Under the pieces are notes generated by a model, which searched no databases, was not told the DNA's origin, and worked only from the letters and a program-made list of their open reading frames with translations. From positions 1 through 61,020 of the forward strand of contig CALXPK010000043.1 of NCBI GenBank assembly GCA_944390265.1: a stretch of DNA of 61,020 nucleotides, written 5' to 3'. This document shows, piece after piece, positions 1 through 25,136 of the stretch. The stretch comes from an uncultured Alphaproteobacteria bacterium (GTDB lineage: Bacteria > Pseudomonadota > Alphaproteobacteria > RF32 > CAG-239). How positions within the stretch are numbered: position 1 is the first letter of the stretch; each line of letters opens with the position of its first letter. A program made the position numbers and the translations under genes.

Positions 1-477
1 CATCATATCTTCGGTTGCATCTCGAAACTGGTAAAAAACCGGCCATGATGACAAAAAATTTATCATTCCGCCGGGAAGCCATCGACTGCTCATTTCCGCT
101 TCATCGCTGATGACCGTGTTTCTCAAAATTACATATTGTTTGATGAATGTTTCCAACATCAAATCTTTTGAGGCCATGTCGGTTGAGATTGGCTCCGAAC
201 GCACCAGCTTGTCCGAATTGTCCTGTCGGATGATTAAAAACGGCTCAACCTCGACCAACGGCGCCAAATGAAACAAGGCCAAACTCGAGCTCAGAAAAAC
301 AATCAGCGAAATGGTGGCAAAAAAGATGAACAATCGGGAAAGCCACATATAATATACCAGCTTTAAGGATTGGGTTTCTTTTTCCTCCTTATTGAGAAAT
401 TCGGCATGAGGCTGTTTGTTCTTGTCGGTGATTGACAAGACCTGCGCCCCTGACTGAAGAGATTTTGTTTCCGGCAT
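1..477 (-). CDS. VirB8-like T4SS inner-membrane protein, N-terminal part only (gene continues past the left edge)
   Basis: Not in the ORF track because it is open at the window edge. My translation starts at ATG 477-475, preceded by AGGAAAAAAG: MPETKSLQSGAQVLSITDKNKQPHAEFLNKEEKETQSLKLVYYMWLSRLFIFFATISLIVFLSSSLALFHLAPLVEVEPFLIIRQDNSDKLVRSEP...LETFIKQYVILRNTV. It has a short cytoplasmic N-terminus, one TM helix, then the vEPflIr / fi.qYV..R pattern I associate with VirB8/TrbF. It starts 36 nt after the stop of the 1225-aa gene. Confidence 0.55.
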   Translation of the reverse strand, partial: MPETKSLQSGAQVLSITDKNKQPHAEFLNKEEKETQSLKLVYYMWLSRLFIFFATISLIVFLSSSLALFHLAPLVEVEPFLIIRQDNSDKLVRSEPISTDMASKDLMLETFIKQYVILRNTVISDEAEMSSRWLPGGMINFLSSWPVFYQFRDATEDMM

Positions 478-513
478 CTTTTTTCCTTGCTCTCTCTTTC
501 TTACTTGCTCTTG

Positions 514-3500
514 CTAATAAGCCGCACAATAAGCCGGCTTTAAGGCTTTTAAGGTTTCTTCAAAACTTTCATCACCGTTTTTCTCATATGTCTCATCGAC
601 CGTATTGTTGGTGGTGGCGGTTTTGATTTGCTCCGAAAACTCGGATAAATTATCTACATCCATCGTCATGCTGACCACGGCATCGCTATCCATCATCAGA
701 CCTTGATATACTCTTTGGTAAGATGACTTGCTGTCAGATAAAAGCTCCGAATCTCCGGTGGTGATGCTGTCTATGCCGCTTTTGGCCTCGGCCATGTATT
801 TTTCTTTGACCGTTTTGAGCTGTTTTACGGTCAAATCATAGTCTTCCGGTTTAGAAATATCAAAGTCGGCACTCGGCTCAAAGCCATATTTTCTCAAGTT
901 TTCATACAACTCTTCTTTGGCTTCGTTGACTTGTTCTTCCAAATCATCCAGCGCTTGTTGATATTTTTGCTCCAACTCAACATGCTCCAGAAAATCGCCC
1001 ACCTGATTGTTATTATATTGAGCTCGAACATAAATGTCATCATTTTGTTGCTCGGCGGCATTGAAGTCGTCAACATTTTCTTTTTTGCTCAGTTCTTCCA
1101 TGCGCTTGCCATAGTTTACGACCGATTGCATATACGGACTGTAGCCAATGGCATGCTGAACAAAACTATGATCCGTCAGCATTTTGCCGCTGTAGATGTT
1201 GATGATGCTGCCCAGCTCGCTGGCTTCTCCTTCCGAAACAAATGAGCCTGATTTGGTGTTGGTCTCCTCGTCTTTGTTCAACAAGCTCAGATACGGCGTG
1301 GCAACTTCTTTCAGCCCGCCGTTTACAACTTTGAGCTCACTCTTACACTTGGCCGAAATTTCCTGACAGGTCGGCAAACCGGCTTCCAGCAACGCGGTTC
1401 GCTTGTCACCGCTGACAAATTTCAGCCCCATGAAATATTCATCGTCATTGGTTTTGCCGTTGTCTATTATGGTCACATCAACAACGCCGGTGCCGTTATC
1501 TACTGTGCCGCTGGCCGTGCAAACGCCGTTTTCACCCTCAATGTTTTTCAACACACAAGGATAAATTCCGCCGCGGAACAACGGTGACATCTCTCCGCCA
1601 AGCTGCAACGGATTATATTCGGCCGGCGGATTTTCCTCGGCCTTGGGATCCATGTCTGCCGTCAGGTAAAAATCGCTGTCGACAAAGGCTTTATCTTTCA
1701 ACATCAACTGCCATATTTCCGGTATTTTGCCGCCATAGGTCAAGAATTTTTCTTTGTCGATGATGGATATCGGCATGAGGTTCGATTTTTCCCAAACACG
1801 CTCTATCTGCCCGATTTGCTTGATTACAATTTTGTAGGTACCAACCTCCATTTGCGGAGTGTCTTTGCCTATGCTTTGCAAATCTATATAGTCCAGACGG
1901 ACATATTCTCGCAACGGCGGCAGATTGTAGTCCGGCATGGCTTTAGGTGCCGTAAAGTCTTCTTTTTTGGGCTCGGAACCGACAAAATATTGGCTGTCTT
2001 GTCCCGTATATACGCCTTTCAACATATCTCCAAACAACGGAACCGTCAGCAAAACCTGCGTGTTTTTGACCATATCGCGATAGTTGTTCAGATAAAGCTC
2101 GCGCATTTGCTCGTCCATATAGGAACTGATGACAATATCGACATTATAGTTGGTCAAATCATGAACTTTGGCGGCCGGAACTTCTAATTTGACGCCGCCG
2201 ACTTGCGCTTCTTTGCCGTTCAAACTATCTATCAAGGCTTGGTGATAGGCTACTATGGTTTCTGAAATTTGGCCGCGATACAAATCGTCTCCCAAGGCTT
2301 GCAATGCCGCCAGAGTTTTATCAATGTTTTCATACGCAATCTCTTTGGCATCTTCCACAATGATGTCCGATTGGTCAATAATCTGTTTGGCCGTAACCAT
2401 TGATTTGCTGCCGATGGCGGCTTTGGCTGCAGCTTCTGCCGCATCTATCTTATCATTTTTGGATTTCAGCGCTTGCTCTTGCGTTTTGGTGTCTTGTTTG
2501 AACTTGTCCAGCGCCTGCTGTTTTTCTTGCACGGCTTGCTCATTGGCTTGGCCGATTTTGACTTGAATTGAGCTTTCATATTCGGCCTTTTGGACTTGCT
2601 TTTGACTCAAGGCTTGTGTTTGTTCATCATAAAGTTTTTGCAAATCATCTCGTTTGGCAATTTGCGAATCATAGAGCTGTTGCGTTTGCTCGATTTCTTT
2701 TTCCTTTTTGGCTTTCAAATCTTCATAATCGGCCGTTTGCTCTTCATCCAAATTGTCTTGATCCAGCATATTTTCATAGCCGGCGATTTCTTGCCGCAAA
2801 TCGGAAATTTCTTGTTTGAGCTTGTTGTTCTCGGCATTTATGTCGCTGATTTGCGTCATATAAGAATCTCTTTGCTGATTGATGGCCGCCATTTCTTTGT
2901 CAAACTCGGCAACTTTGGCTTCCAACTCTCGGTTCAGATTATCAATGCTGCTAACGCGCACTTCTTCAATTTGTGCCACTTTTTCTTCATAGGATTTCAG
3001 CGCTTTTTCCACATCTTGATTGTAACTGCCTTTGGCTTTTAATCTGGCTTGAACGGCCGCCTGCGTGATTTGGGCTTCAGCCATGTTCATATATTCTTTT
3101 TGGCGCTCGAAAACTTTTTCGGCAATCCTTTGGCGCGCATTGTCCGCAACGGAATAGTTTTTGATATATTCTTTTATATTGCGATATTTTCTGATTAAAT
3201 ATTGGCCGTAAAAAGTTTTTTGATCGGTCCAGACCGGAAAACGCTTTTTGGCACCGCCCAAATCGGCACTGTTCCATGCAGGCCCTTCCGAGGTGCTGTA
3301 TCCGGCCAGATAATCGGCCATCCATAAGGCAACTTCGGCACCGATATCCAAACTCATTAAATCGGCTTTGCGGTCGGCTTGCTCCAATTCTTCCTGTCGG
3401 CTCGGTTCTTTGAAATATATTCCTCCGGTTTGCTCCTCCAAGTTATCCACCACGGAATCACTCTCCTGATGCAGGTTTTCAAGATTGATCATCTCTCCGT

Positions 3501-4191
3501 CGTTTTGATAATTTATTTTGACATCAACCGCACTGCTACTGCTGTTCAATGTGGTTTCCACATCAATAACGTTGCCCGCATCATCTTTGGTTTGCAAATC
3601 GGCGCTGATGACATCGCTTGTATCAATGGGGGAAACTTGTGCCGATTTGGCCGTTTCAAACAAGGCAATGGCCCAAGCCGAAAGCCCTTGGCGCAAATCA
3701 TGATTCTGCGGGGTTTCACTCATGTCTTTGCCCGACCAGACTTTGACCGGATTGTTAAAATAGCGCCCCATATAATCCAGTGTGCATTGTTCCGAATTTT
3801 TCAGCAACTCTACCGTGCGGTCGTGTAGTTTGACCGTGTTGTTATATTGTTTTTGAATGTTTTTATAGCTCCGCAAACGGTTCAGCAAATTGTGCACATC
3901 CACGGCGACCTGCAGATTGGTATTAATCGGCTCCAGCTTGTCCAGCTCTTCCATTTGCGCTTCGGAACCCGAAAACGGGTGCGTTTCTTCCGTGGTGGCT
4001 GCCGGCTGAATGGTTAATATGCTTGTCACGCCCGTGTTTTTTGAGCTTGATTTTACACTTGCGGGAATCGGCGTGCCGCTGCCCGTGTAAAAAGGAGAAT
4101 ACGTTTCTTGTGCCGCGGCCAGAGAAGCTGCCAGCAAACACAATCCCGCCGTTAAAGATGTTACTTTCAGGCTGTTATTTAACCGTTTCAT
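514..4191 (-). CDS. Very large (1225 aa) Sec-signal, TM-free coiled-coil protein in the slot where VirB6 is expected; function unknown
   Basis: Track ORF is 514..4260. Preferred start is ATG 4191 (MKRLNNSLKVTSLTAGLCLLAASLAAAQE) behind GAGGAG, overlapping the upstream gene by 17 nt. A central region of roughly 250 aa is E/K/Q-rich heptad-like sequence. No hydrophobic helices follow the signal peptide. Confidence 0.8.
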   Translation of the reverse strand: MKRLNNSLKVTSLTAGLCLLAASLAAAQETYSPFYTGSGTPIPASVKSSSKNTGVTSILTIQPAATTEETHPFSGSEAQMEELDKLEPINTNLQVAVDVHNLLNRLRSYKNIQKQYNNTVKLHDRTVELLKNSEQCTLDYMGRYFNNPVKVWSGKDMSETPQNHDLRQGLSAWAIALFETAKSAQVSPIDTSDVISADLQTKDDAGNVIDVETTLNSSSSAVDVKINYQNDGEMINLENLHQESDSVVDNLEEQTGGIYFKEPSRQEELEQADRKADLMSLDIGAEVALWMADYLAGYSTSEGPAWNSADLGGAKKRFPVWTDQKTFYGQYLIRKYRNIKEYIKNYSVADNARQRIAEKVFERQKEYMNMAEAQITQAAVQARLKAKGSYNQDVEKALKSYEEKVAQIEEVRVSSIDNLNRELEAKVAEFDKEMAAINQQRDSYMTQISDINAENNKLKQEISDLRQEIAGYENMLDQDNLDEEQTADYEDLKAKKEKEIEQTQQLYDSQIAKRDDLQKLYDEQTQALSQKQVQKAEYESSIQVKIGQANEQAVQEKQQALDKFKQDTKTQEQALKSKNDKIDAAEAAAKAAIGSKSMVTAKQIIDQSDIIVEDAKEIAYENIDKTLAALQALGDDLYRGQISETIVAYHQALIDSLNGKEAQVGGVKLEVPAAKVHDLTNYNVDIVISSYMDEQMRELYLNNYRDMVKNTQVLLTVPLFGDMLKGVYTGQDSQYFVGSEPKKEDFTAPKAMPDYNLPPLREYVRLDYIDLQSIGKDTPQMEVGTYKIVIKQIGQIERVWEKSNLMPISIIDKEKFLTYGGKIPEIWQLMLKDKAFVDSDFYLTADMDPKAEENPPAEYNPLQLGGEMSPLFRGGIYPCVLKNIEGENGVCTASGTVDNGTGVVDVTIIDNGKTNDDEYFMGLKFVSGDKRTALLEAGLPTCQEISAKCKSELKVVNGGLKEVATPYLSLLNKDEETNTKSGSFVSEGEASELGSIINIYSGKMLTDHSFVQHAIGYSPYMQSVVNYGKRMEELSKKENVDDFNAAEQQNDDIYVRAQYNNNQVGDFLEHVELEQKYQQALDDLEEQVNEAKEELYENLRKYGFEPSADFDISKPEDYDLTVKQLKTVKEKYMAEAKSGIDSITTGDSELLSDSKSSYQRVYQGLMMDSDAVVSMTMDVDNLSEFSEQIKTATTNNTVDETYEKNGDESFEETLKALKPAYCAAY

Positions 4192-4882
4192 CTTTTTTCT
4201 CCTCAATAATATTGCTTTGTTGGCTCTTAAACAACGGTTCAACCTCTCCGTGAACCGCATAAGCCGCCGTCATCTGAGATTTGATGGCAACCAGCTCTTG
4301 CAAAACCGTTAAAATTTGGTCCGTGGTGGCCGATATCATATATTTGTTATACAATCCGCCGTTCAAATCATCGGCTTTGGTATATTCTTTTTCGGCCGTG
4401 ACAATTTGCGTGTCTATTTTGGTGAGCTGTTTTTCCAGCTCTCTGACCGCCGTGAAGGCCTCTATCATCGTATCTTCAAAAAACTCTTGCCCTTCTCGCT
4501 TATAGGCCAACTGCTCGTCCGGATCATTAGACGGATATGTGAAAAACAACTCCGGAAAGACTTTTCTTATTTCTTCTTCATTCGAAACATCGACAATTTT
4601 GCTTTCCTTAATTTCTTTGGTACCGGGAATCTTGGTCTCTTTCCGTGAAAACAAGCTCTTAAAAAAGTCTTGTATGGATTTATACACCTGCAAAGTGGCT
4701 TTTATCACTTTATTAGCAAAGGTTGCGGCTTTGTTGGCCACCGAGGTGATGGTGTTGGGAACCTGTGTGGCCAAGCTGCCCGGATCAAACAAGGCGCAGG
4801 CGTCGTTTCTCAGCGGAAGAATTGTCAGAGATACAACCATGCTCATGAAGATAAACAATTTCAGACATGTTTTTTTCATCAT
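4175..4882 (-). CDS. Secreted helical protein, possible VirB5/TrbJ-like paralog (235 aa)
   Basis: Signal peptide MMKKTCLKLFIFMSMVVSLTILPL. The mature N-terminus ALFDPGSLATQVPNTITSV resembles the start of VirB5/TrbJ proteins. Its start overlaps the stop of the upstream gene (TAATG), and its 3' end overlaps the next gene. Confidence 0.65.
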   Translation of the reverse strand: MMKKTCLKLFIFMSMVVSLTILPLRNDACALFDPGSLATQVPNTITSVANKAATFANKVIKATLQVYKSIQDFFKSLFSRKETKIPGTKEIKESKIVDVSNEEEIRKVFPELFFTYPSNDPDEQLAYKREGQEFFEDTMIEAFTAVRELEKQLTKIDTQIVTAEKEYTKADDLNGGLYNKYMISATTDQILTVLQELVAIKSQMTAAYAVHGEVEPLFKSQQSNIIEEKKDETVK

Positions 4883-6048
4883 TATTTATCTCCTTTCTTT
4901 TTATAGACATAATCATCCATATTAAATTCGGTAATGTTTGTTTGCTCCTTTTGCAATTTGTAAAAGGTTAAATTGGACAGCTCTATGGCGGTTTGGCGCT
5001 TTAAGTCTTGTATCAACAAATGTGTATAGGCACTTAGGGCTTTGAGATTTTCGATTTGCAACTGCGCGGCCGCTCCCCATGCCCCTGCCGTGGTATCAAA
5101 CGTGGAAGCATTATAGCCAATGTCTTCCGCCGAATTGTTTTTTTCATTAATGTCGGGAAGCTGCTTCAAGGCCTCTTCATATGCCGAGATGATGCTGTTT
5201 CTTCTTTCAAGCAAACGGTTGTAACGAATGGTATCTTGCCGCTGAGGGTTCAACTCTTCATCATATTGCAAAAAGTATAATCTTGACGTGCTGGTCAGGG
5301 CATCTTCCGAGCTTGGTTCCGTTGACAAACCGGTCAAAAACTTCATATCATCCTGCAGTTTCGCAATTTGCGTATCGAGGTTTGATAACTCTGTTTTATA
5401 GCTGTTTAACATCTTGTCCAACTCGGCCTTTGCCGTTTCATCCAGATTGCTCAGCTGTCTGCTCAGCTCCTTACACTTATATTTCCATTGTTCATATTCT
5501 GCCTTATAAGCATCTTTATCGGTGGATTTTTCTTGTATCAGCTTTTGCAAATTTGTCATGTTTTGATTGCAGGATTCAATTTGTCCCGAGATAGTGCTCT
5601 TTTGAGCTTCAACCTCGGCCATAAACGAGGTTTCTACCTCCTTTATTTTCATTTTTATGGAGTCATATTGTTTGCCGATAGCTTTGAGGTCATCGGCTAT
5701 TTTGCTGTATGCTCCCACATGCTTGTCATAGATGCCTTTGCCTTCTTCATACATTTTTTTATAGGCTTCTACATCTGACTGAACCTCGTCGGCAAAAGAT
5801 TTGAGGTTGCCGACATTGCTTTCTATCCACGATCTGGCTTCGGTAAAACCTTTGCCGATTTTTTGCACAATGGTTAAATTGCCGGCTTTATCCAAAATAT
5901 TTTGTGCCTGCTTTCCGGCTTTGGTTACCGTGGTTGTGACATCTTCCGCCATGTTAGAGAGTTTGGCCAAAATCCATGCCGATGCCGTTGAGGTGCTACT
6001 CAAGACAAGGGAGAAAACAAATATTATCTGCAATATCAGTTTTTTCAT
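4882..6048 (-). CDS. Secreted coiled-coil protein of the T4SS operon, unknown function (388 aa)
   Basis: Signal peptide MKKLILQIIFVFSLVLSSTSTASA, followed by long charged helical sequence. Its ATG overlaps the upstream stop by 4 nt (6045-6048), which suggests translational coupling. Confidence 0.75.
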   Translation of the reverse strand: MKKLILQIIFVFSLVLSSTSTASAWILAKLSNMAEDVTTTVTKAGKQAQNILDKAGNLTIVQKIGKGFTEARSWIESNVGNLKSFADEVQSDVEAYKKMYEEGKGIYDKHVGAYSKIADDLKAIGKQYDSIKMKIKEVETSFMAEVEAQKSTISGQIESCNQNMTNLQKLIQEKSTDKDAYKAEYEQWKYKCKELSRQLSNLDETAKAELDKMLNSYKTELSNLDTQIAKLQDDMKFLTGLSTEPSSEDALTSTSRLYFLQYDEELNPQRQDTIRYNRLLERRNSIISAYEEALKQLPDINEKNNSAEDIGYNASTFDTTAGAWGAAAQLQIENLKALSAYTHLLIQDLKRQTAIELSNLTFYKLQKEQTNITEFNMDDYVYKKKGDK

Positions 6049-6773
6049 TTGTTGCCTCCTTGCGATGTAGATGCGGCTTTTCTTTCCGTTGTTTGCTCCG
6101 AATCCAGCGTTATGGAAGTCATAATTTGGGTTCCCCGATATTCGGCAATTTGAGATTCCATAAACAAAATGTCATTCCAGCGTCTGACAATTTTGTCGGC
6201 CATGGCTCGGTTACCTTGAATGATTTCTCGCGTGTTTTTGCTATCCAAAGTTGTATCCGGCAAATCTCTTTCTTTGGCCAAATTAACTCGCGTGGCCAAA
6301 GCATGGGCATACATGGCAGCAACATTCATTTGCAAAAGTTGTGTGTTTTTCTGCTGGTTGGCCTTGGCTTGCTGCATTTGTTGCCCTTGTGAAGAAAATG
6401 TGTTCATATATACATTTTCAACGGCCTTTGAGGCTTTGTCCCCGTCATTGATGTTTTCGGCAATGCCCGATACGGCCTGTGTGGACGGAACCAAACGCGG
6501 CAGATTGATTTTGGTGATTGTGTCGGCATAGCTTTTGATAGCGTCAAAACCAAAATTGCCCGATTTTAACTCTTCTATTGTTTTTTGGATGGTAGCTTCA
6601 ACCTGCTCGGCTTGCTCGCCGGCGGCATTGACATTTTCGACCATATCGGCCGAATTGTTGGCCACATCCGTACCGATAATCGGTACCGGTATCGGGAAAA
6701 AGGCTTGTCCTTCGGAGGCATAAAAACTTCCGAATATCAGGCTGAAAATTGCTATTTTGTGCAAATTGTGCAT
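6045..6773 (-). CDS. VirB5/TrbJ-like secreted protein (242 aa)
   Basis: Signal peptide MHNLHKIAIFSLIFGSFYASEGQA. The mature N-terminus FFPIPVPIIGTDVANN resembles the IPV.D start of VirB5/TrbJ. Size and all-helical composition fit VirB5. The call is by motif and position only. Confidence 0.5.
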   Translation of the reverse strand: MHNLHKIAIFSLIFGSFYASEGQAFFPIPVPIIGTDVANNSADMVENVNAAGEQAEQVEATIQKTIEELKSGNFGFDAIKSYADTITKINLPRLVPSTQAVSGIAENINDGDKASKAVENVYMNTFSSQGQQMQQAKANQQKNTQLLQMNVAAMYAHALATRVNLAKERDLPDTTLDSKNTREIIQGNRAMADKIVRRWNDILFMESQIAEYRGTQIMTSITLDSEQTTERKAASTSQGGNK

Positions 6774-6796
6774 GAAGTTCTCCCTTTTTCCGCCGA

Positions 6797-7807
6797 TTAT
6801 TCTTTTTTATCTATATTGGTCAAATCGCGATTGTTAACCTCATATGTTCCAAAATCGCGGAAAGCATCTAAGCCAAGCTGGCTGGCATAAACCTGAATCA
6901 GTTTGTTTTTCAGCTTTAGGGCTTCCATCTCGGTTAAGGTCAAAACCTCAATATCACCGCGCTCATCCGTGGCTTTGGATGATTTTTCCTGCAAGGGCAG
7001 CAACACTTCTTTTTCATAGCCCGAGGTATCATTTTTATAGCGGGCGGCATCGGCTATGGCATGAGAAGTTGTGTCTATCAGCGAATCTTGATACAACTCA
7101 TTCATTTGTTCTCTGGCGGTTTGGGTGCCTTGTGCGCGCTGCGAGATGACTTTTTCCAAACATTCACTCATTTTATCCAAAGTGGTGGTGTCCATTTCAC
7201 AATAGTTTGCCAGATTATCGGAGAAAAGGAAAACATTTTCTGCCGTGGTTCCGGTGTAGGCTTGCGTTGCCTCTTTGGCAAAAGACAATCTCTCTTGCTT
7301 GCGGCGAACGGCATAATGCAACGCTTTGGGGTCTAAACTGTTGTCACCGCGTATAAACGGACGTCTGCCGCGGCTCGGGCTTTGCGGCTCGACATATCGC
7401 GGAGAACGCTCCAATGGTTTGGTCATGGCTTTTTCGGCCGGAGCCGGTACCGGAACGGCTTCTTGCGCGGCAGGATTTATTTCTTCTTGGGTGTTTGTTT
7501 CCGGTTCTTGTTTCTGTACTTGGTTTTGCTTACGAACTTCTTCTATTTTTCGATCATATACTTCAGCGCCTTTGGGTGCGGCTAAAGATAGTTCTTTTTG
7601 ATATTTGTTTTGAAATTCGCCCATTTGGTCGGCCAAATTTTGTTGCTGTACCTCGCGCTCATCAATGGATTTTTGAACTTGTTGCGCTTTGGCCAAAAGC
7701 TCGTCCAAATCTTCCGCCGATGCCTCAAAGGCGCTCAAGGAGGCCAACAAAAGCCCACCCATGCCGGCTTTTAGGATATGTGACATTTTAAAAATTTGCT
7801 TTGTCAT
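6797..7807 (-). CDS. Secreted protein with coiled-coil N-part and Pro-rich linker, unknown function (336 aa)
   Basis: Signal-like N-terminus ...AGMGGLLLASLSAFEASAED, a charged coiled coil, then the stretch PAAQEAVPVPAPAEK. It is tightly packed in the operon, with 22-23 nt gaps on each side. Confidence 0.7.
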   Translation of the reverse strand: MTKQIFKMSHILKAGMGGLLLASLSAFEASAEDLDELLAKAQQVQKSIDEREVQQQNLADQMGEFQNKYQKELSLAAPKGAEVYDRKIEEVRKQNQVQKQEPETNTQEEINPAAQEAVPVPAPAEKAMTKPLERSPRYVEPQSPSRGRRPFIRGDNSLDPKALHYAVRRKQERLSFAKEATQAYTGTTAENVFLFSDNLANYCEMDTTTLDKMSECLEKVISQRAQGTQTAREQMNELYQDSLIDTTSHAIADAARYKNDTSGYEKEVLLPLQEKSSKATDERGDIEVLTLTEMEALKLKNKLIQVYASQLGLDAFRDFGTYEVNNRDLTNIDKKE

Positions 7808-7829
7808 TTTTTGTTCCTCTCTTGTGCGC

Positions 7830-8759
7830 TTATGAAATAAAACTACCTACGTCTTTTATCAAATCTTGGCCTTGCTTAATCAATTGTTCGGCTTGTCCAT
7901 ACAAATCTTTAGCTCTTTTTTGATATTCATCACCTTTTTTAATCAAGCTGTCGGCCTCATTTTTCATTTGCTCAACTTTGTTGCCGATATCTTTGGCTTG
8001 TTGCTGCAAATTTTTTGCATCTTCTATCCATTGTTCACCTTGTTTTATCAACGCTTGAGCTTCTTGTTTTTTGGCTTGCGCTTGCTCTACTAAGGCTTCG
8101 GCCTCTTCTTTGCTTTTTTCTGAAATAACGGTTTTGCTTTGAGCCAGCAAATCGTCCGCTTCGGCCAACAAATCTTTTCCTTGTTGTAACAGCTCCGGCC
8201 CTTCTTTGGCATATTTTTTGGCATTTGAAATCAGATTTTCGGCCTCATTCTTCATATTTTGAGCTTCCGATAACAAGTTTTTGCCATCGGCGACCGATTG
8301 TTTGGCATCATCGACCAGCTTGTCGGCCTGATCTTTGAGGTCATTGGCTTGGTTGATTAATTCTTTGCTGCGGTTAGCCAACTCTGCTCCTTCTTTAACC
8401 TTATCCACCACAGCCTTTCCTTTTTGAACCCATTTGTTATTTTTGGCCGCTTCCAGTTTTTTTTCATATTTTTCTTTGACTTCCTGCAATTTTTGCAGAC
8501 GGTCGGTGATGTTTTTTTTGATAAAGCCGTTCATGGCCTCATTATATTTTCCTAATGCGCCTTGTATGTTTTTGGCTGTCTTAGTGGCCCAAGCCAATTG
8601 GGTGGAATTTTGCACATCGGTCGCAGCGCGTTTTACGGCCTGAACCAAACTTTGAACATCAATGGAGGGAATGCCGAAACCATAGCTCGGCTGCGGTGAA
8701 ACAATAAACATATATGCGCTTATTAACGCCAGCGCCAAAATTTTATCCGTTTTTTTCAT
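7830..8759 (-). CDS. TrbJ/VirB5-like N-terminus fused to a long repetitive coiled coil (309 aa)
   Basis: Signal peptide MKKTDKILALALISAYMFIVSPQPSYG. The mature start FGIPSIDVQSLVQAV resembles the TrbJ/VirB5 start. The remainder is iterated A-K-E-Q-L-I helical repeats (AKDL..QAEQLIKQGQDLI and similar). It is the first gene after virB4. Confidence 0.55.
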   Translation of the reverse strand: MKKTDKILALALISAYMFIVSPQPSYGFGIPSIDVQSLVQAVKRAATDVQNSTQLAWATKTAKNIQGALGKYNEAMNGFIKKNITDRLQKLQEVKEKYEKKLEAAKNNKWVQKGKAVVDKVKEGAELANRSKELINQANDLKDQADKLVDDAKQSVADGKNLLSEAQNMKNEAENLISNAKKYAKEGPELLQQGKDLLAEADDLLAQSKTVISEKSKEEAEALVEQAQAKKQEAQALIKQGEQWIEDAKNLQQQAKDIGNKVEQMKNEADSLIKKGDEYQKRAKDLYGQAEQLIKQGQDLIKDVGSFIS

Positions 8760-8838
8760 TTTCCACCTCCGACTTAATAATTTGATATGATTTTAGTATA
8801 CCAAAAATTGTCCAAAAATTAAACCTAAATCTCCGATA

Positions 8839-11271
8839 TTACGCAATATTTAAATATTTTGTAACAAAGTTGTCTTCGCCATATTCTTTTATCAAATCTT
8901 CCACCAAAAGAACATTCTTGCGTCCCGAATTGTATAGTTTCAGATAGACGCCCAAACCGCTCAAATCCACATCCAAAATGACGGACTCTCCCGTGGCCGG
9001 ACGCGACAACAAGATGGCATACGGAAAATCGCGATAACTTTTGCCGAAAATGAAGTCCAACTCGCTCTGAGTCAGGTTCCAGCTGGCATAGTCTTCCAAT
9101 TGGGCTTGCGGATTGCGGAAAAAGATGACGGTTTGGCACTGGCCGCGAATAACCTCCCCCACACCTAATTTATCGATAATGCTCGGCTGTTGGAAGGCAC
9201 AGAGATAGGCTTGACGCTTTTTACGGCCTTCTTGCAAGCCGATGATGAAATAGTCTCTGAACATGGGGTGTTTGAGCATCGGCGCGGTCTCATCAATCAT
9301 AATCAAGGCCGGAATGCCGGCATCTCCGGTTTCTGACATGATACGGTGCATGATATAGCTGATGACCGCCGGCGCCAAGGTTTCATCTTCAAAAATATGG
9401 GTGAAGTCAAACGCCATAAATCTTTTGCTGTTTAAGTCCAAACTATCAGTATCGGCATTGAAAATGTTGCCGTATTGCTCCGGATTGACCCATTTGAAAA
9501 GCTCTCGACGCATATTGCCGGTCGGCGAAAAACAGCTCTTGTATAAGTTTTTCATGATGCGTTCTTCCGGACGCAAATAGTCAAACGCGGTGGTGACGGC
9601 TCGCGCAATTTCTTTTTCCGAGAGGGCATCATCAACCATGGTAATGGCTTTGAGCCAGCGGCGCAAAAAGGCGCGGTTGGTCGCGTTGTCCTCACAATCA
9701 AACGGGTTTAAGGAAACGTTTTTCTCTTCTCCGTCAAAGCCGATATAGGCGCCGCCAATCGATCGTGTGAAAATTTCGGCACCGCGGTGACGATCAAAGA
9801 AAAACACCTTCAAATCGCGGTGACGCATGGCTTGTCCGGCCAAAAAGGTCAGCAAGGTGGTTTTACCTTGTCCGGTCGGACCAATAATACAGCAGTGCGC
9901 CACGGCTGATTCTTCCGAAGAAACGTGGAATTGAAAACGATACGGAGATCCCGAGGTGGTGCGGAAAATGGTGATGGCGCCGTTGCCCCAGTCTGATTTG
10001 CTAAAGCCTTCCGACGGTTTTTCAAAACTGATGGCGGTGGCCACCACGCGCGATAAATAGCGATATGTCCGCGGATAGGTGTCATATGTGGGAAACTGGT
10101 TAAAAAACGTGGCTTCGCAAACCCAGCCTTCGCGTACCGGCGTGACACTGAACAAACGGCATATTCTTTGGACTTCGCTTTCACCAAACTCAACTTCTTC
10201 CAGACTTTGGCCACGGATGATGACGGACATGGAATATTCGGTCAGAGATTGATAATTGGCATCGCTATCCTCAATTGAAGATAAGGCTATGCTGTATTGA
10301 TTGACCACTTCGGATGAAAAACTGGTGATGCCGGCCATTTTTTGTTGTTGCAGCAGCAAGGCTCGCGCATTGGCACGGAAAATCGGCTTGATATTGTGCA
10401 ATAACACCAGTTCGCAATCTATCGAGAGCAAAGAGTTTATCATGGCTTCATCCATATAATCTCCGGATGTGCGAATGCCCATGGTGATTTCAAAGCACTC
10501 TTTTTCTCCCGAAAAGAATCTGATGACGCCGTTTTCTCCGGTAAAATGAATGTGGTCGGCCGTCAACATTTGGTTGAGCATCGAGCCTTCGGCGTTTCCG
10601 ATTTTTGGTTCCGGCTTGGATATGGGGCTGCAAATGCGCGAAAAAACATATAGCGGACTATCGGTTGCCGGACTGTCCGGTGTTTCATACATGGTTTTGA
10701 CGCCATATTCACTCAATGTGGCCAACAAGGCTTGCGAGGCATAGTTCAAGTCTTTCAGTGCATCGGTTCGATCCGGTACGGATAATATAATATAGTGCGT
10801 GTTGGAAAAAACTCGATTGATGTTTTGCGCCCAGACTTGCGAAATTTGTTCCAGAAGTTGGTTGCCGAAATCGCCGACGTCTTCTTCCAAGGGAATCCGC
10901 TCACGCAGGGTGATGACCCGACAGGTTACCTGCAGATCCGACATGCCGTCAATCCATGATTTGCGCGCCTCCAGCATTGACATCACTTTTTCTTCGTTGG
11001 CAAAGGTCAAATCTATGCCTTCTACCTTGAAAACTCTTACCAGCGAATTATTATAGCATCTGACGGTGATGCCGTCCGACAAAAGTTTGCTGAACGGCAA
11101 AAAGTCCGACACTCTTGATTCTTGCGGTTGGGGCAAAATTATGCGTCCGAATTTCGTGGCCCAAAATCCGGCAAAGGAGGCTGCCGAGATAAAGCCTATA
11201 ATGGCAACCAAAACCTCGGTATTTGACAGTCCTTGAACAAATATATCAAAAAAATCGCTACTAGGGTGCAA
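8839..11271 (-). CDS. virB4: Type IV secretion ATPase VirB4/TrbE family (810 aa)
   Basis: Walker A IIGPTGQGKTTLLTF, a Walker B-like ALIMIDETAPML, typical VirB4 length, an N-terminal hydrophobic helix, and an 11-nt overlap with the VirB3-like gene. Confidence 0.92.
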   Translation of the reverse strand: MHPSSDFFDIFVQGLSNTEVLVAIIGFISAASFAGFWATKFGRIILPQPQESRVSDFLPFSKLLSDGITVRCYNNSLVRVFKVEGIDLTFANEEKVMSMLEARKSWIDGMSDLQVTCRVITLRERIPLEEDVGDFGNQLLEQISQVWAQNINRVFSNTHYIILSVPDRTDALKDLNYASQALLATLSEYGVKTMYETPDSPATDSPLYVFSRICSPISKPEPKIGNAEGSMLNQMLTADHIHFTGENGVIRFFSGEKECFEITMGIRTSGDYMDEAMINSLLSIDCELVLLHNIKPIFRANARALLLQQQKMAGITSFSSEVVNQYSIALSSIEDSDANYQSLTEYSMSVIIRGQSLEEVEFGESEVQRICRLFSVTPVREGWVCEATFFNQFPTYDTYPRTYRYLSRVVATAISFEKPSEGFSKSDWGNGAITIFRTTSGSPYRFQFHVSSEESAVAHCCIIGPTGQGKTTLLTFLAGQAMRHRDLKVFFFDRHRGAEIFTRSIGGAYIGFDGEEKNVSLNPFDCEDNATNRAFLRRWLKAITMVDDALSEKEIARAVTTAFDYLRPEERIMKNLYKSCFSPTGNMRRELFKWVNPEQYGNIFNADTDSLDLNSKRFMAFDFTHIFEDETLAPAVISYIMHRIMSETGDAGIPALIMIDETAPMLKHPMFRDYFIIGLQEGRKKRQAYLCAFQQPSIIDKLGVGEVIRGQCQTVIFFRNPQAQLEDYASWNLTQSELDFIFGKSYRDFPYAILLSRPATGESVILDVDLSGLGVYLKLYNSGRKNVLLVEDLIKEYGEDNFVTKYLNIA

Positions 11272-11551
11272 ATTTCATCCCCTTTGATTTATATAGGTTG
11301 GTCGTTGGCTTGTAGGTTTGGCCGTAAGCCTGAAGCATGGTCGACAGATGCGGTTCTTTCAGCCCCAGCGAAACGATTATGAGATGCACAATCAATATGC
11401 TGAACAAAAAGAACAACGGGTTCAAATCCATCATCCCGATGGCCATAAACATTATGGGAAATTGCAAGCCGATGTTAAGCAACACCGGCAAAAACGGCCC
11501 CCATAATATTTTGGGAGGATTTGCAACTGCTTTAAGAATCATTTCTCTCAT
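11261..11551 (-). CDS. VirB3-like small membrane protein (96 aa)
   Basis: Two hydrophobic helices (ILWGPFLPVLLNIGLQFPIMFMAIG; LFFLFSILIVHLIIVSLG) followed by KEPHL. It lies directly upstream of virB4 and overlaps it. Confidence 0.75.
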   Translation of the reverse strand: MREMILKAVANPPKILWGPFLPVLLNIGLQFPIMFMAIGMMDLNPLFFLFSILIVHLIIVSLGLKEPHLSTMLQAYGQTYKPTTNLYKSKGMKFAP

Positions 11552-11649
11552 GGGTCTAAATCCTCATTTTTATCTGTCTTTTTTATCATATCTTTTCAAC
11601 TCTGCCTTGGCAACAGAAACATATGTTTTTATCACAATCAAAGCGAATC

Positions 11650-11686
11650 AAAAAAGGTACACTTTGCTTTTTAGTGTACCTTTCTT
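11650..11686 (-). terminator. Rho-independent terminator/attenuator between the pilin genes and virB3-virB4
   Basis: Stem GGTACACT (11656-11663) pairs with AGTGTACC (11673-11680) around a 9-nt loop. A/T runs flank both sides, so a T-run follows the stem on the minus strand. Confidence 0.6.
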
Positions 11687-11744
11687 TTATGAATAATGCG
11701 TTAATGAATTATAAGGATGAAAAAATTTGCATTCAGAGCTTGTT

Positions 11745-12917
11745 TCAGAGGTTGATGCCGTTCCAGTTCGGAATATCTCTTTCACAACTCATGGTAGATG
11801 AGTTCCATCTTCCGCCGATGAGTTGACAGCTTCTTTTTTCCTGACTGTAATCCGTTCCGCTCACCGATACTTCATCCAAGGTTCCGCCATCAATTGCCGA
11901 ATTGTTTTCGATGGCTTCTTCCACCTGATTGAGCGTGATGTCATTGGGGTTAACGGTTGTATCTGCCAAACCTAAGTTGTCCAGATTGTTGGTTTTTTCT
12001 TGATTATTACTTATGGCCTGATTAATTTTATCCACCGTTATGTTTGTCGGAGCGTTTGACGTATCAGACAATCCTAAATTATCCAAATTATTGGAAGTAT
12101 TTTTGTTTAACGTATTGGCAATATCCGCTTCGGTTATGCTGACCGGCGCATTTGAAGTATCAGCCAGCCCCAGATTGTCCAAACTATTGGTTTTGCTTTG
12201 GTTGGCGGCCAAAGCCTGATTAATTTTATCTACCGTTATGCCCGTCGGGTCATTGGTCGTATCGGCCAAGCCCAGATTATCCAAACTGTTTGCGGTGCTG
12301 CTTGATGTTGCGGTATTGGTTGTCGTTGTTTGATTTTCCATGGCGTTGATTAAATCATCTGCAGATAACTTCGGCGTATTTTTCAAATTTTCCATAACAT
12401 TTTCTATGTTTGTCGTTCCCGAGGTGCAACCCGTGCCGGTTCCGGGGACGCAATTTGTTTTTATATCGCTGCTATTGCTATTTTCAGAGGTGGCCGTGCC
12501 GTTGCTTCCAGGGTCTTTTTGCGAGGTCGGTGATGTGGTTGAGCCTTCCGTGGCCGTATAACTTCCCGAGGCATCCAGATAATGGCCATAGCCCAACATA
12601 TTGGCATATTGACCGGCTTTTCCCTCTTTGGTGGCTAAATAGTCTATCAACAAGCCGACATTGGCCACCAAAAACAATCCGATGGCAATGTTGGCAAACC
12701 ATTTCCAATTTATTTTTCCGAAAATGGCCGCAAAGGCAAAACCAATTAAACCAAAACCGGCAAGAATGAAAATCAGGGGACGCAAATCGTAAATTAACTT
12801 GGCAGCCTTATCTCTGACCGTACCCAGAACGTCTGCAGCATTGGCATCGCCGCTCCACAACACAATTGCCAAACAACAAAACATTGTCAGTAATATTGCA
12901 CGTTCCGGATGTTTCAT
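11745..12917 (-). CDS. VirB2/TrbC-like pilin domain (first ~100 aa) fused to a ~290-aa Ser/Thr/Asn-rich C-terminal extension with four ~34-aa repeats
   Basis: The N-terminus has a signal peptide plus two TM helices, and shares the FGKINWKW motif with the two short paralogs (GNINWKW, GKLDWKK). The short paralogs end 15-20 aa after TM2, whereas this one continues for ~290 aa. The extension has 4x (N/S)LDNLGL(A/S)DT.N.P..IT...I and two Cys pairs (NCVPGTGTGC; SCQLIGGRWNSSTMSC). Confidence 0.7.
   Translation of the reverse strand: MKHPERAILLTMFCCLAIVLWSGDANAADVLGTVRDKAAKLIYDLRPLIFILAGFGLIGFAFAAIFGKINWKWFANIAIGLFLVANVGLLIDYLATKEGKAGQYANMLGYGHYLDASGSYTATEGSTTSPTSQKDPGSNGTATSENSNSSDIKTNCVPGTGTGCTSGTTNIENVMENLKNTPKLSADDLINAMENQTTTTNTATSSSTANSLDNLGLADTTNDPTGITVDKINQALAANQSKTNSLDNLGLADTSNAPVSITEADIANTLNKNTSNNLDNLGLSDTSNAPTNITVDKINQAISNNQEKTNNLDNLGLADTTVNPNDITLNQVEEAIENNSAIDGGTLDEVSVSGTDYSQEKRSCQLIGGRWNSSTMSCERDIPNWNGINL
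11892..12293 (-). repeat. In-frame tandem coding repeat (4 copies of ~100 nt) inside the extended pilin gene
   Basis: The nucleotide motif GACAATCTGGGGCTGGC / TTGGATAATTTAGGATTG recurs on the coding strand. The peptide copies are SLDNLGLADTTNDPTGITVDKINQAL, SLDNLGLADTSNAPVSITEADIANTL, NLDNLGLSDTSNAPTNITVDKINQAI and NLDNLGLADTTVNPNDITLNQVEEAI. Confidence 0.85.
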
Positions 12918-12940
12918 CGCTTTTCCCCTTGAGGTTGACC

Positions 12941-13306
12941 CTATTTCAACGTATCTTCAATTTTCGGCGCATCGCCGCCGGCAATATAGGTTAAAATTCC
13001 GCCGGTCATACCAATGACCATCAGGCCGATGACAATGGCGCCCAACCATTTCCAGTTGATGTTACCGAAAAAGCCGCCGATGGCTACGCCGATGATGCCA
13101 AAACCGGCCACGACATAGATTATGTCGCGCATGCCTTTAAAAATTTCTATGCCTTTAGATATCAGATCGGCAAACAGACCGCCGCCCGAATAGGTTGACG
13201 TTACGGCAGCATCTGCGGCAAAAGCCGATGCCACGCATAAGACTGAAGAAAACAATAGTCCCCATAACAGTGTTATACTTATTTTCTTTATTCTCACGCT
13301 TAGCAT
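12941..13306 (-). CDS. VirB2/TrbC-like T4SS pilin paralog (121 aa)
   Basis: Signal peptide ...CVASAFAADA, followed by two hydrophobic helices separated by FGNINWKW. The size is typical of a pilin. Confidence 0.7.
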   Translation of the reverse strand: MLSVRIKKISITLLWGLLFSSVLCVASAFAADAAVTSTYSGGGLFADLISKGIEIFKGMRDIIYVVAGFGIIGVAIGGFFGNINWKWLGAIVIGLMVIGMTGGILTYIAGGDAPKIEDTLK

Positions 13307-13412
13307 TGCTTTTTGTCCTTATATCTTAATTTAAATAAACAAAAAAGGAGGCCTCAATTCAAATTCATTCCAAAAATTTTCATTGTGCCTCCCCTTGCTC
13401 ATTTTTTTCAGA

Positions 13413-13760
13413 CTATTGAGCTGAACTACTGAAAGTATCACCCAATTTTGTACCTTCGTTATCACCGGTAGCGTAGTCAACAATAGAACCGGCTGCCGCC
13501 AAAATGGCCAAGCCTACAGCCAACATTGAAAACTTTTTCCAATCCAACTTGCCGAAAATGGCCATGAAGGCCAAAACCACCAAACCGAAACCACCAACAA
13601 TGAAGATGATGCTTTTTACAGCCTTAAACACGGCAACGGCTTTGGTTTGAGCCGTATCAACCAAGTCCACGGCTTGTGCAAAGGCGGCATCGGTTGTGCC
13701 GAGCATGACAAACAAAGCCAAGCACAAAATGGTGCAAAGATTTTTCTTAATAAAACGCAT
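13413..13760 (-). CDS. VirB2/TrbC-like T4SS pilin paralog (115 aa), first gene of the operon
   Basis: Signal peptide MRFIKKNLCTILCLALFVMLGTTDAAFAQA, followed by two hydrophobic helices separated by FGKLDWKK. Confidence 0.7.
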   Translation of the reverse strand: MRFIKKNLCTILCLALFVMLGTTDAAFAQAVDLVDTAQTKAVAVFKAVKSIIFIVGGFGLVVLAFMAIFGKLDWKKFSMLAVGLAILAAAGSIVDYATGDNEGTKLGDTFSSSAQ

Positions 13761-14060
13761 AATTTTTCTCCTTATTCATCTAATTATCCATATCTATATA
13801 TAGAATAACCAAATTTTTCTTTTTTTTCCAGCATTTTTGTTATTACACCAAAAGAGTTAACATATTGTTTACGGGCAAATTTTTTTCTCGTAACAAAAAA
13901 TTCACAGTTTAGTTTTTTGTTTTTGTTGTTTTTTTCTCCCTTAAAAGACTTTTTCAAAATTGTGCTTCCGATAAAAGAATCCACAATTTTTGAGGTATTT
14001 TTTTTAACTTCTTGCCAAGAGTCGCATTTTGATTTATCTAGTTTTTTGAGGGGTTTTATT
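13761..14060. promoter_or_regulatory. AT-rich 300-bp divergent intergenic region between the T4SS pilin operon and the type IVb pilus operon
   Basis: No credible ORF. There are long T/A runs and an inverted repeat, CAAAATTGTG (13955-13964) and CACAATTTTTG (13982-13992). Promoters for both operons must lie here, but the exact sites were not determined. Confidence 0.4.
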
Positions 14061-15890: not shown

Positions 15891-15977
15891 TAAGTTGTTG
15901 CTTGCGCTTGATTATTTATTTTTCAGTATGTATGATAGGTAAAAAATATGACAAAATATTGCTTAGGAACCGCAAAA

Positions 15978-16634
15978 ATGATTAAAAAACAAAGTTTATT
16001 CTCGTTTTTATTCTGTTGCCTGATTTTGTCGGGATGTTCGGCTTTCAACCCTGCCGCTCAGCCAACTTCGGCTGCCAACGCCCCGCAACAGACAGGTGTT
16101 AATTCTCATCAAAACAGCATTCAGAATACGCCTCCCGTCAGCAATGATTTTGTTCAAAATACCGAAGTGGCCGCCGATTATAAAGAATATGGCGAAAGAA
16201 CACCCCGCGACCAGTTGGTGGTGCAAGGCGGTGCCGGAAGCAATTTATCTTCATCCATTCCGCCAACCATTGAGGATGAGGTTGTCGATTATGAAGAAAG
16301 CGTCCAAATCAGTGAGACCGAAGAAGTTTCCGAAAACCAAAATGCGGATAACCTAAGCGAAGATCCGGTTGAAGACTGGTTGGCCGAAGAAGGCAAAAGT
16401 TTGAAAACTTTGCTGACCGAATGGAGCGACCGCGCCGGTTGGAGACTGATTTGGAACACAAATCGAAACTATACCTTAACCGCAGGTGCCATGTTCAGAG
16501 GCCGTTTTGCCGATGTCAGCTCGGCTTTAATCCGCGCTTTTGCTCGCGCAAAACCGGCTCCGATTGCAACTTTCTATAAAGGAAACCGCGTCTTGGTCGT
16601 TGAGACTATGGAGGATGAAAATGCGTATGAATAA
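15978..16634 (+). CDS. pilL: PilL-like lipoprotein with TcpQ-type C-terminal domain (R64 nomenclature)
   Basis: Lipobox MIKKQSLFSFLFCCLILSGC. The C-terminus WLAEEGKSLKTLLTEWSDRAGWRLIWNTNRNYTLTAGAMFRGRFADVSSALIRAF...ATFYKGNRVLVV matches my memory of the toxin-coregulated-pilus Q / PilL domain. It lies directly upstream of the secretin. Confidence 0.6.
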   Translation: MIKKQSLFSFLFCCLILSGCSAFNPAAQPTSAANAPQQTGVNSHQNSIQNTPPVSNDFVQNTEVAADYKEYGERTPRDQLVVQGGAGSNLSSSIPPTIEDEVVDYEESVQISETEEVSENQNADNLSEDPVEDWLAEEGKSLKTLLTEWSDRAGWRLIWNTNRNYTLTAGAMFRGRFADVSSALIRAFARAKPAPIATFYKGNRVLVVETMEDENAYE

Positions 16635-18240: not shown

Positions 18241-18252
18241 AAGGGAAAAAAC

Positions 18253-21046: not shown

Positions 21047-21055
21047 GATTTAAAC

Positions 21056-22735: not shown

Positions 22736-22754
22736 TTTTTTTCATGAGGAAAAA

Positions 22755-23885: not shown

Positions 23886-23886
23886 G

Positions 23887-25097: not shown

Positions 25098-25136
25098 GTG
25101 ATATGTTAATGATGCAGAAGCTGAAGGAGATTGAAA

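Follow-up and report, generated by a model that had tools for sequence, protein, structure and literature searches.

Conserved VirB-like operon of gut Alphaproteobacteria with six predicted exported proteins between virB4 and virB8

The window analysed here was the complete 61,020-bp chromosomal contig CALXPK010000043.1 of an uncultured alphaproteobacterium, and the system in question is the type IV secretion system (T4SS) encoded in its first 13,760 positions. Twelve genes were found in positions 1-13760, all on the minus strand and all in the same direction. This region is the promoter-proximal two-thirds of a chromosomal T4SS operon of about 31 kb, which is cut by the contig end within the gene virB8a. 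The contig, which was uniform in G+C content (41-48%), also bears parE, rpsA and four tRNA genes. Together with the related loci described below, the region showed a conserved chromosomal VirB-like operon of gut Alphaproteobacteria, in which six predicted exported proteins (P1 to P6) are encoded between virB4 and virB8. The genes, with lengths in amino acids (aa), were as follows.

13413-13760, minus strand: virB2-like pilin gene a, 115 aa (PF04956 TrbC/VirB2, E 2e-12)
12941-13306, minus strand: virB2-like pilin gene b, 121 aa (PF04956, E 1.5e-4, under the Pfam cut-off)
11745-12917, minus strand: virB2-like gene c (PF04956, E 4e-7, residues 6-85)
11261-11551, minus strand: virB3-like gene, 96 aa, hydrophobic hairpin (assignment based on BLASTP together with position, size and topology)
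8839-11271, minus strand: virB4 ATPase gene, 810 aa (TIGR00929 VirB4_CagE, PF03135 and Walker A motif GPTGQGKTT)
7830-8759, minus strand: P1, 309 aa, predicted exported, no family match
6797-7807, minus strand: P2, 336 aa, predicted exported (AlphaFold model, mean pLDDT 77)
6045-6773, minus strand: P3, 242 aa, predicted exported, mature N-terminus FFPIPxPxIGTDVANN
4882-6048, minus strand: P4, 388 aa, predicted exported, central coiled coil and conserved C-terminal domain
4175-4882, minus strand: P5, 235 aa, predicted exported, mature N-terminus LFDPGSLxTQVPNT
514-4191, minus strand: P6, 1225 aa, predicted exported, multidomain (AlphaFold model, mean pLDDT 75)
1-477, minus strand: virB8a, 5' part, 159 codons, cut by the contig end

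The value pLDDT is the predicted local distance difference test score of a model. VirB2a had a signal peptide and two hydrophobic helices, and was 71-79% identical to its orthologues. VirB2b showed the VirB2-type topology, and PF04956 was present in its orthologues. In VirB2c, the pilin domain was followed by a C-terminal tail of about 290 aa, rich in Asn, Thr and Ser. About four degenerate 33-aa repeats (N-LDNLGLADT-N-P--IT-D-IN) were seen in the translation of the tail at residues ~200-340, and Tandem Repeats Finder detected none at the DNA level. The whole VirB2c protein ranged from 217 to 626 aa across orthologues, the length of the tail being variable. A pilin bearing such a variable exposed tail is unusual.

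The VirB3-like protein gave no match in the Pfam and NCBIfam scans, and BLASTP aligned it to the annotated VirB3 of Microvirga pMVF16-3 with an E-value of 2e-7. The 3' end of its gene overlapped the start of virB4 by 11 nucleotides (nt), and the protein was 77-94% identical to its orthologues. VirB4 matched TIGR00929 with an E-value of 4e-116 and 389 bits, under the curated cut-off of 643, and was 86-93% identical to its orthologues. Judged by this profile, it is a divergent member of the VirB4 family. The VirB8a fragment comprised an N-terminal cytoplasmic stretch and one transmembrane (TM) helix, and was 60-82% identical to orthologues of 250-252 aa bearing PF04335 (VirB8). Scans of the region for promoters, terminators and tandem repeats gave nothing over the shuffle expectation. 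The genes named in an earlier note on this DNA were thus recovered: its three virB2-like genes, virB3-like gene and virB4 with GPTGQGKTT were confirmed by coordinates, PF04956, BLASTP and TIGR00929, and all six of its packed or overlapping open reading frames (ORFs) exist. Its VirB8-like gene at the edge was supported by the PF04335 orthologues, with the start at position 477 and not at about 500.

The spacings of the P1-P6 genes after virB4, through virB8a, were +79, +22, +23, -4, -1 and -17 nt. These closely spaced or overlapping starts suggest that the P genes are translationally coupled with virB4 and virB8. At the N-terminus of each of the six proteins, a basic n-region was followed by a hydrophobic h-region and then by an AxA-like site. 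In the mature proteins, the highest 19-residue Kyte-Doolittle mean was just 0.46-1.15, compared with 1.7-3.1 in the pilins, VirB3 and VirB8, so that TM helices are not predicted in them. The Sec signal peptides noted earlier on all six proteins were therefore found again as n-h-c segments, by hydropathy. A crude heptad score was 61% for P4, 50% for P1, 34% for P5 and 15-17% for P2, P3 and P6, with 0-4% in shuffled controls and 0% in VirB4. Accordingly, the former description of the block as mostly heptad-like suited P1 and P4, and did not suit P5 or, still less, P2, P3 and P6.

No family match above noise was found for P1-P6 in Pfam, NCBIfam or the PDB, where only sub-threshold coiled-coil noise was returned. 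Furthermore, the PF07996 and TIGR VirB5/TrbJ profiles gave no accepted match among the six proteins. The ortholog profiles of P1, P2 and P3 and a 56-sequence profile of the P2 family retrieved only designed helical bundles and cytoskeletal coiled coils from the PDB. The result was in agreement with the earlier statement that the proteins could not be placed in any family, as the profile hidden Markov models, the PDB profiles and the Foldseek searches with two models were all negative. Judged from these searches, P1-P6 are six new protein families, none of them previously described. Relatedness within the block was also considered. Initial hhalign probabilities of 94% for P3-P4 and 76% for P1-P4 were driven by the signal peptides and were gone after their removal. 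Without signal peptides, all pairs among P1-P5 gave at most 12%, and relatedness was undetectable at that level.

In P1, the N-terminal 110 aa of the mature protein were conserved and began with FGIPxIDVQ, and the remainder was a variable coiled coil rich in Lys, Glu and Gln. An NCBIfam TrbJ match of P1 (E 0.0026) was discounted, as it fell in the low-complexity coiled coil. Homologue searches with the full-length P1 and with an N-terminal profile returned two fragments each and no more. The P2 model was largely helical: a hairpin of helices at the N-terminus was joined by a disordered Pro-rich linker to a helical bundle at the C-terminus. The pLDDT of the model exceeded 90 at residues 190-320. 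In the C-terminal domain, C216 was invariant and C203 at least 90% conserved among 56 sequences. A full HMMER search with P2 gathered 57 representative clusters of this domain family, none with a Pfam family. Beyond the orthologues of P2, the domain also caps many coiled-coil proteins of 500-790 aa and forms an undescribed domain family, one member of which had a weak DUF4141 match at its N-terminus. Foldseek comparison of the P2 model with the PDB gave no significant match and no T4SS protein.

P3 had no family or PDB match and no TM helix, and its order and size were kept in every locus that reached it. The gene of P4 overlapped that of P3 by 4 nt and that of P5 by 1 nt, and P4 had no family match. 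P5, likewise without a family match, was the best conserved of the six, with 60-80% identity to its orthologues; in the exact-protein look-up, an identical P5 was found on two short (4-kb) metagenome contigs only. The P6 model was also largely helical. Its N-terminal helical domain was followed by an antiparallel helical hairpin, each arm of which had about 107 residues, then by a beta-rich domain and finally by a helical bundle at the C-terminus. P6 had several invariant cysteines and an invariant C-terminal motif, Y-C-x-x-Y. Beyond its own cluster, 31 cluster-level homologues of 1121-1233 aa were found, none of them named, and these had no Pfam domain except for a single weak GAS (coiled-coil) match. 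The exact-protein look-up of P6 itself gave no other copy, and P6 matched no family in Pfam or NCBIfam. Foldseek with the whole P6 model returned only generic SMC/Rad50-type coiled coils from the PDB and BFVD, with a template-modelling score (TM-score) of at most 0.14.

The rest of the operon was recovered from related loci. Ten were obtained by exact-protein look-ups of P6 homologues and 70 more by a pattern scan with one genome per species, in which about 23 kb per genome was inspected. The order was virB2 (three to five copies), virB3, virB4, P1-P6, virB8a, virB7, virB8b, virB9, a gene for a beta-flower protein, virB10 and virB11, and the operon terminated after virB11. The products encoded beyond P6 were as follows.

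VirB8a: 250-253 aa, PF04335
VirB7-like lipoprotein: 62-63 aa, lipobox L-S-G-C, then FGSYYEPEP.G.GKG.NELKLSPCAC...
VirB8b: 244-251 aa, PF04335
VirB9/CagX: 526-585 aa, enlarged, PF03524
Bitopic beta-flower protein: 1143-1446 aa, mostly 1243-1249 aa, with beta-flower/YD-like repeats
VirB10: 1500-1700 aa, with signal peptide, beta-flower repeats and C-terminal TrbI/VirB10 domain (PF03743)
VirB11: TIGR02788, at least 80% identity across the clade

The block from the three to five virB2 genes to P6 was identical in order and near-identical in sizes wherever the contig extended. All six P genes were present in L003, L005, L078, L079, L084 and L085, and also in L086 after a cut virB4; the partial loci L004, L077 and L087 agreed over their extent. 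The synteny proposed as a check on the region was thus conserved, in order and sizes, in all seven spanning loci. The VirB7-like lipoprotein gene sat between the two virB8 genes in every locus extending that far. The interval within the window indeed had no small lipoprotein, as previously noted, but VirB7 lies just past the contig end in the relatives and has not been replaced. Two giant proteins followed VirB9 in L006 (6266-15049), and likewise in L003, L005, L078, L079 and L084-L086. The repeats of the bitopic protein and of VirB10 were of the beta-flower/DUF3659/YD-like type (PF21785, E 1e-72 to 1e-74). In the giant VirB10, a signal peptide replaces the usual N-terminal TM anchor, and it looks from the domain layout as if the membrane anchor and the barrel of VirB10 were split between two repeat-bearing proteins.

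By tblastn, P6, VirB8a, VirB7 and VirB8b were found in 63 of the 70 species-level loci and VirB11 in 65, the others being truncated contigs. The 70 loci came from metagenome-assembled genomes (MAGs) of human, mouse, ruminant and other gut samples; the MAG labels read uncultured Alphaproteobacteria, Azospirillum sp., Rhodospirillales or Proteobacteria CAG:495. Such MAGs presumably belong to the GTDB order RF32. Binning contamination, and not horizontal transfer, probably accounts for two loci, L032 and L061, whose MAGs bore the labels Bacteroidaceae and Acutalibacteraceae, because their VirB10-like protein was 45-47% identical to the alphaproteobacterial one. No description of the T4SS of this clade was found among the papers of the library searched. 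In summary, P1-P6 were shown to be real, conserved genes, whose products have predicted N-terminal export signals and no predicted membrane helices.

The genes of a VirB-type T4SS were thus represented by VirB4, three VirB2, VirB3 and VirB7-VirB11, the latter mostly from the orthologous loci, and a polytopic VirB6/TrbL, VirD4 and a relaxase were not found. The searches for these three covered the operon and about 8 kb downstream, at the locus and not genome-wide. In the complete operon of the relatives, no ORF had more than one hydrophobic segment besides the pilins and VirB3. PF04610 gave no match, and tblastn with a TrbL-positive VirB6 was negative for the window and all 70 loci. Nor was any conserved ORF predicted to span the membrane four times or more, either in the 70 loci or in the 61-kb window. 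Furthermore, tblastn with two VirD4s and one MobA gave no match in the 70 loci. Because the absence was true over 70 loci, it characterises the locus throughout the clade and is not an assembly artefact. The lack of a VirB6-like polytopic ORF, previously noted for the window, was confirmed by the hydropathy scan, and the relatives had no VirB6 just outside it, where the earlier note had allowed for one that would make the locus ordinary. In addition, virB9, virB10 and virB11 were found through the relatives, virD4 and the relaxase were not found at the locus, and the view that this was not a plain conjugative module fits these results.

The missing VirB6 might be encoded elsewhere. The system would then be an ordinary T4SS with VirB6, and possibly VirD4, at another chromosomal site, and P1-P6 would be lineage-specific accessory or adhesin proteins. 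The inspected stretch was only about 23 kb per genome, the rickettsial rvh (Rickettsiales vir homolog) genes lie in five islets (PMC2653234), and VirB6 has been described as conserved in all T4SSs (PMC12857230). Moreover, a more distant plasmid system, that of Paracaedimonas, keeps a TrbL/VirB6. However, every other machine gene lay in one contiguous operon at each locus, and the 61-kb window was without a VirB6-like ORF. The closest relatives are plasmid-borne MOBQ systems, in which the transfer genes are expected in cis, yet these had no canonical polytopic VirB6 within 14-20 kb. We consider this explanation somewhat improbable.

The nearest plasmid T4SSs were those of the MOBQ plasmids NZ_CP031358 (Erythrobacter aureus YH-07), NZ_CP035502 (Sphingosinicella sp. 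BN140058 p1) and NZ_CP069357 (Microvirga sp. VF16 pMVF16-3). The VirB4 identity was 35-38% to these plasmids, 30% to the Paracaedimonas plasmids and about 25% to canonical VirB4s. The MOBQ plasmid order was relaxase, virB2, virB3, virB4, a ~250-aa protein, a 420-450-aa protein, a lipoprotein, virB8, virB9, virB10, virB11 and virD4. Like the gut clade, these plasmids had the core order virB2-virB3-virB4 ... virB7-virB8-virB9-virB10-virB11, the VirB7 signature N-x-L-K-x-[ST]-P-C-A-C and exported helical proteins in the slot after VirB4. Unlike the gut clade, they were plasmid-borne and had a MobA/MobL relaxase and VirD4, two slot proteins, a single VirB8, and a VirB9 and VirB10 of normal size. 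Homologues of P1-P6 were not detectable on them by BLAST.

The ~250-aa slot protein of Erythrobacter (251 aa) passed the Pfam VirB5 profile PF07996 with 30 bits and E 7e-7, the match of the Sphingosinicella protein was weak (E 0.016), and the Microvirga and Paracaedimonas proteins had no Pfam match. The ~450-aa slot protein was a second VirB5-like paralogue (hhalign 95%). In the ~450-aa genes (L081 23165-24649; L083 17061-18563; L080 23216-25218), an in-frame upstream extension added a signal peptide, and the annotated starts seem too far downstream. The VirB7-like lipoprotein of Sphingosinicella (L083 18803-19012) was absent from the distributed annotation. In six-frame hydropathy scans, no polytopic VirB6 was found within 14-20 kb of virB4 in Erythrobacter and Sphingosinicella, and the same scan of Microvirga gave only a 228-aa protein with three TM helices. 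The Paracaedimonas plasmid system had a TrbL-positive VirB6 after its VirB5-position gene. Because the MOBQ sister plasmids are without a canonical VirB6 in this slot, its loss seems, on this comparison of gene contents, to predate the gut-clade system.

A possible link to VirB5 was detected for P2. Over about 105 residues at its C-terminal end, the 56-sequence P2 profile aligned with the VirB5 group of the plasmids at an hhalign probability of 62-70% (E ~5e-5), and hmmsearch gave 18 bits. These alignments are suggestive, though not proof, of a distant link between the C-terminal bundle of P2 and VirB5. The mature start of P1, FGIPxIDVQ, resembles GIPVIDP and QIPTIDP of the plasmid VirB5 proteins, with an hhalign probability of only 17-26%, and no VirB5 link was detected for P3-P6. 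A tblastn search intended to enlarge the plasmid VirB5 family found two records only. As to the earlier idea that VirB5 had been replaced, nothing in the slot matched the family profiles, and in view of the P2 bundle the replacement is perhaps not entire.

Considering these results, the system may be a lineage-specific, non-conjugative and expanded T4SS, in which P1-P6 are exported parts of the machine or of the pilus tip; we give this reading about an even chance. P1-P6 are regarded as machine parts because their genes are embedded in the operon, appear translationally coupled and are fixed in order across a deep clade, because P2 seems to retain a VirB5-like domain, and because VirB5 paralogues occupy this slot in the sister plasmids. 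P1-P6 would be exported by Sec and would assemble in the periplasm and at the cell surface as part of a stalk, a pilus base or a pilus tip, which canonical systems build from a VirB5 pentamer on top of a VirB6 pentamer, and where they may stand in for VirB5 and perhaps for VirB6. P2, and perhaps P1, may have descended from VirB5. P6, whose predicted helical hairpin would be about 16 nm long and is accompanied by the beta-rich domain, could act as a spacer or an adhesin-like element matching the enlarged outer complex of VirB9, VirB10 and the beta-flower protein. The machine would not be a conjugation apparatus, and contact-dependent delivery to another cell, or adhesion, would be its most likely function.

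In the structure of the R388 system, pentamers of VirB5 and VirB6 make the periplasmic stalk, with VirB6 mostly periplasmic under VirB5 (PMC12857230). A soluble substitute for VirB6 is conceivable because VirB6 in R388 is mostly periplasmic. A broader view, which we hold only tentatively and regard as possible rather than probable, is that the entire VirB-type branch, gut clade and MOBQ-plasmid sisters together, works without a polytopic VirB6. Its stalk and platform for pilus nucleation would consist of soluble Sec-exported helical proteins, namely radiated VirB5 paralogues in the plasmids, and P1-P5 together with P6 in the gut clade, where P1-P5 could be a heteromeric counterpart of the VirB5/VirB6 pentamers.

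The P proteins differed from the core in their rate of evolution. Between orthologous loci, the identity was 89-91% for VirB4, 80-83% for VirB9, 76-80% for VirB8b, 74-76% for VirB7, 66-73% for VirB8a and 58-67% for the beta-flower protein. Among the P proteins, it was 62-66% for P5, 54-57% for P3, 46-53% for P2, P4 and P6, and 40-46% for P1, the fastest-evolving gene of the operon. The rate of P1-P6 was 2-5 times that of the genes for the ATPase and the core complex. The P proteins are nevertheless under constraint, because their size, their order and many invariant residues were kept. This pattern is expected of surface or periplasmic parts, and secreted cargo would behave likewise.

P1-P6 might be cargo of the kind handled by the Ptl system of Bordetella pertussis, exported by Sec, assembled in the periplasm and then expelled by a T4SS that lacks a coupling protein. 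They would then act as a toxin of several subunits or as a factor directed at a host or a competitor. The Sec-type signals on all six proteins, the lack of VirD4 at the locus and the faster evolution of P1-P6 than of the core would suit such a role. Ptl provides a precedent, in which the toxin genes adjoin ptl, and VirD4 and VirB5 are lacking (PMC12857230). The P genes, however, have overlapping starts and are flanked by virB4 and virB8 within the operon instead of standing beside it, their order and sizes were fixed over a deep clade, and no enzymatic or toxin domain was detected. The low-confidence Foldseek matches of P2 and P6 included the alpha-pore-forming toxins AhlC and MakA in their soluble form, but with E-values above 0.1 and a query TM-score of at most 0.14, which is typical for any long helical hairpin. 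We judge the cargo explanation to be unlikely.

An organelle for adhesion only, like Trw, would translocate nothing, and its pilins and P proteins would be variant surface adhesins for host or prey cells. The presence of three to five VirB2 paralogues, one of which bears a repeat tail that varies in length, would be compatible with this explanation, as would the variable C-terminal coiled coil of P1, the absence of a linked VirD4 and the R64-type type IVb pilus cluster that adjoins the operon. However, the six proteins were not paralogous variants of each other, whereas Trw amplifies trwJ-trwI-trwH units and keeps VirB6. Moreover, VirB11, usually tied to substrate transfer, was retained at an identity of at least 80% across the clade. 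We consider such an organelle somewhat less likely still.

Several points weigh against P1-P6 being parts of a non-conjugative machine. Their placement in the machine is inferred from the genes, and the calls of signal peptides and TM helices were made by simple hydropathy and not by dedicated predictors. The link to VirB5 was weak, reaching no more than 70% for P2 and 26% for P1 and being absent for P3-P6, and Foldseek with the P2 and P6 models retrieved no VirB5, VirB6 or other T4SS protein. Fast evolution and Sec signals suit secreted cargo equally. In addition, genes for VirB6 and VirD4 may lie at other sites of these genomes, in the way that T4SS genes are scattered in the Rickettsiales.

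VirB6 is treated in current reviews as the platform for the assembly of VirB5 and the pilus, conserved in all T4SSs (PMC12857230). A deep and widely distributed clade with no VirB6 in its complete operon would thus be informative, as would sister conjugative plasmids without one: either VirB6 would not be universally required, or its role could be taken by soluble exported proteins. Two of these plasmids, those of Erythrobacter aureus YH-07 and Sphingosinicella sp. BN140058, belong to strains in culture, which makes the VirB6 question testable there. Furthermore, six protein families, including one of 1225 aa, are newly defined by this locus, as is a giant beta-flower VirB10 architecture, and the system is present in about 70 species of poorly known gut Alphaproteobacteria from humans, ruminants and mice.

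Other genes of the window were also identified. Divergent from the T4SS operon, positions 13917-26796 on the plus strand held a type IVb ('thin') pilus cluster of the R64/IncI type. It encoded a 657-aa protein without a known family, a TcpQ/PilL-like protein, the PilN secretin, PilO, a 520-aa protein of unknown family, the PilQ ATPase, the PilR platform protein and three PilS/bundlin-like pilins. After the pilin genes came a 325-aa T2SSE ATPase (25819-26796). This ATPase was considered as a second VirB11 and rejected, because it was just 30% identical over the P-loop region and goes with the type IVb pilus genes. In L005, with 37% identity over 142 aa, and in L085, the upstream neighbour of the operon resembled the gene for the 657-aa protein, and the adjacency of the pilus cluster and the T4SS may be conserved, to judge from these neighbours. 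Genes for a VWA-domain protein, a PP2C phosphatase and a membrane-anchored Ser/Thr protein kinase lay in a row at 28048-30953 on the plus strand, and this signalling triad was located between the pilus cluster and the housekeeping genes.

Compared with known systems, the operon shared features with four of them. The rickettsial rvh system is split over five islets, with virB3-virB4a-virB6a-e in islet A and virB9a-virB8a-virB7-virB8b-virB9b-virB10-virB11-virD4 in islet C (PMC2653234). Its hallmarks are a duplicated VirB8, VirB9 and VirB4, a multicopy VirB6 and the lack of VirB5 (PMC11077975). Like rvh, the present system is alphaproteobacterial and chromosomal, has the virB8-virB7-virB8-virB9 arrangement and carries a lineage-specific gene block right after virB3-virB4. 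VirB2 is also multicopy in some rvh lineages. In rvh no VirB5 is recognisable, and here no family profile detected one, P2 aligning weakly to plasmid VirB5. In contrast, the block after virB4 consists of four to five polytopic VirB6 paralogues in rvh and of six soluble exported proteins here. Moreover, rvh has VirD4 and a duplicated VirB4 and VirB9, whereas the gut loci had a single VirB4 and VirB9 and no VirD4 was seen. The rvh genes are scattered, and the gut operon was contiguous.

In the Trw system of Bartonella, trwL and trwJ-trwI-trwH (VirB5-VirB6-VirB7) each occur as recent tandem duplicates, and VirB6 is kept. The present operon resembled this system in the multiplied pilin genes, the lack of a linked coupling protein and a plausible role at the surface or in adhesion, and to that extent the logic of Trw suggested in the earlier note was appropriate. 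The analogy did not extend to P1-P6, which were not detectable paralogues, to VirB6, which was absent from the locus, or to VirB7, which was single. The Cag system of Helicobacter pylori has CagW (VirB6) and Cag-beta (VirD4) (PMC12857230). The likeness to Cag lay in a very large repeat-bearing VirB10 (1500-1700 aa, compared with CagY), an enlarged VirB9 and several system-specific exported proteins. No sequence relation to the Cag-specific proteins was found, and the repeats were of the beta-flower/YD-like type (PF21785) and not those of CagY.

The Ptl system is also without VirD4 or VirB5, and the Sec-exported proteins encoded with it assemble in the periplasm (PMC12857230). It was similar to the present system in the Sec-type signals on co-encoded proteins and in the absence of VirD4 at the locus. 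It differed in that the ptx genes are upstream of ptl, whereas the P genes lie between virB4 and virB8, and in that no toxin-like or enzymatic domain was detected in P1-P6. Ptl keeps a VirB6 homologue. The system of the gut clade is thus a variant of the VirB-type T4SS, and is distinct from rvh, Trw, Ptl and Cag.

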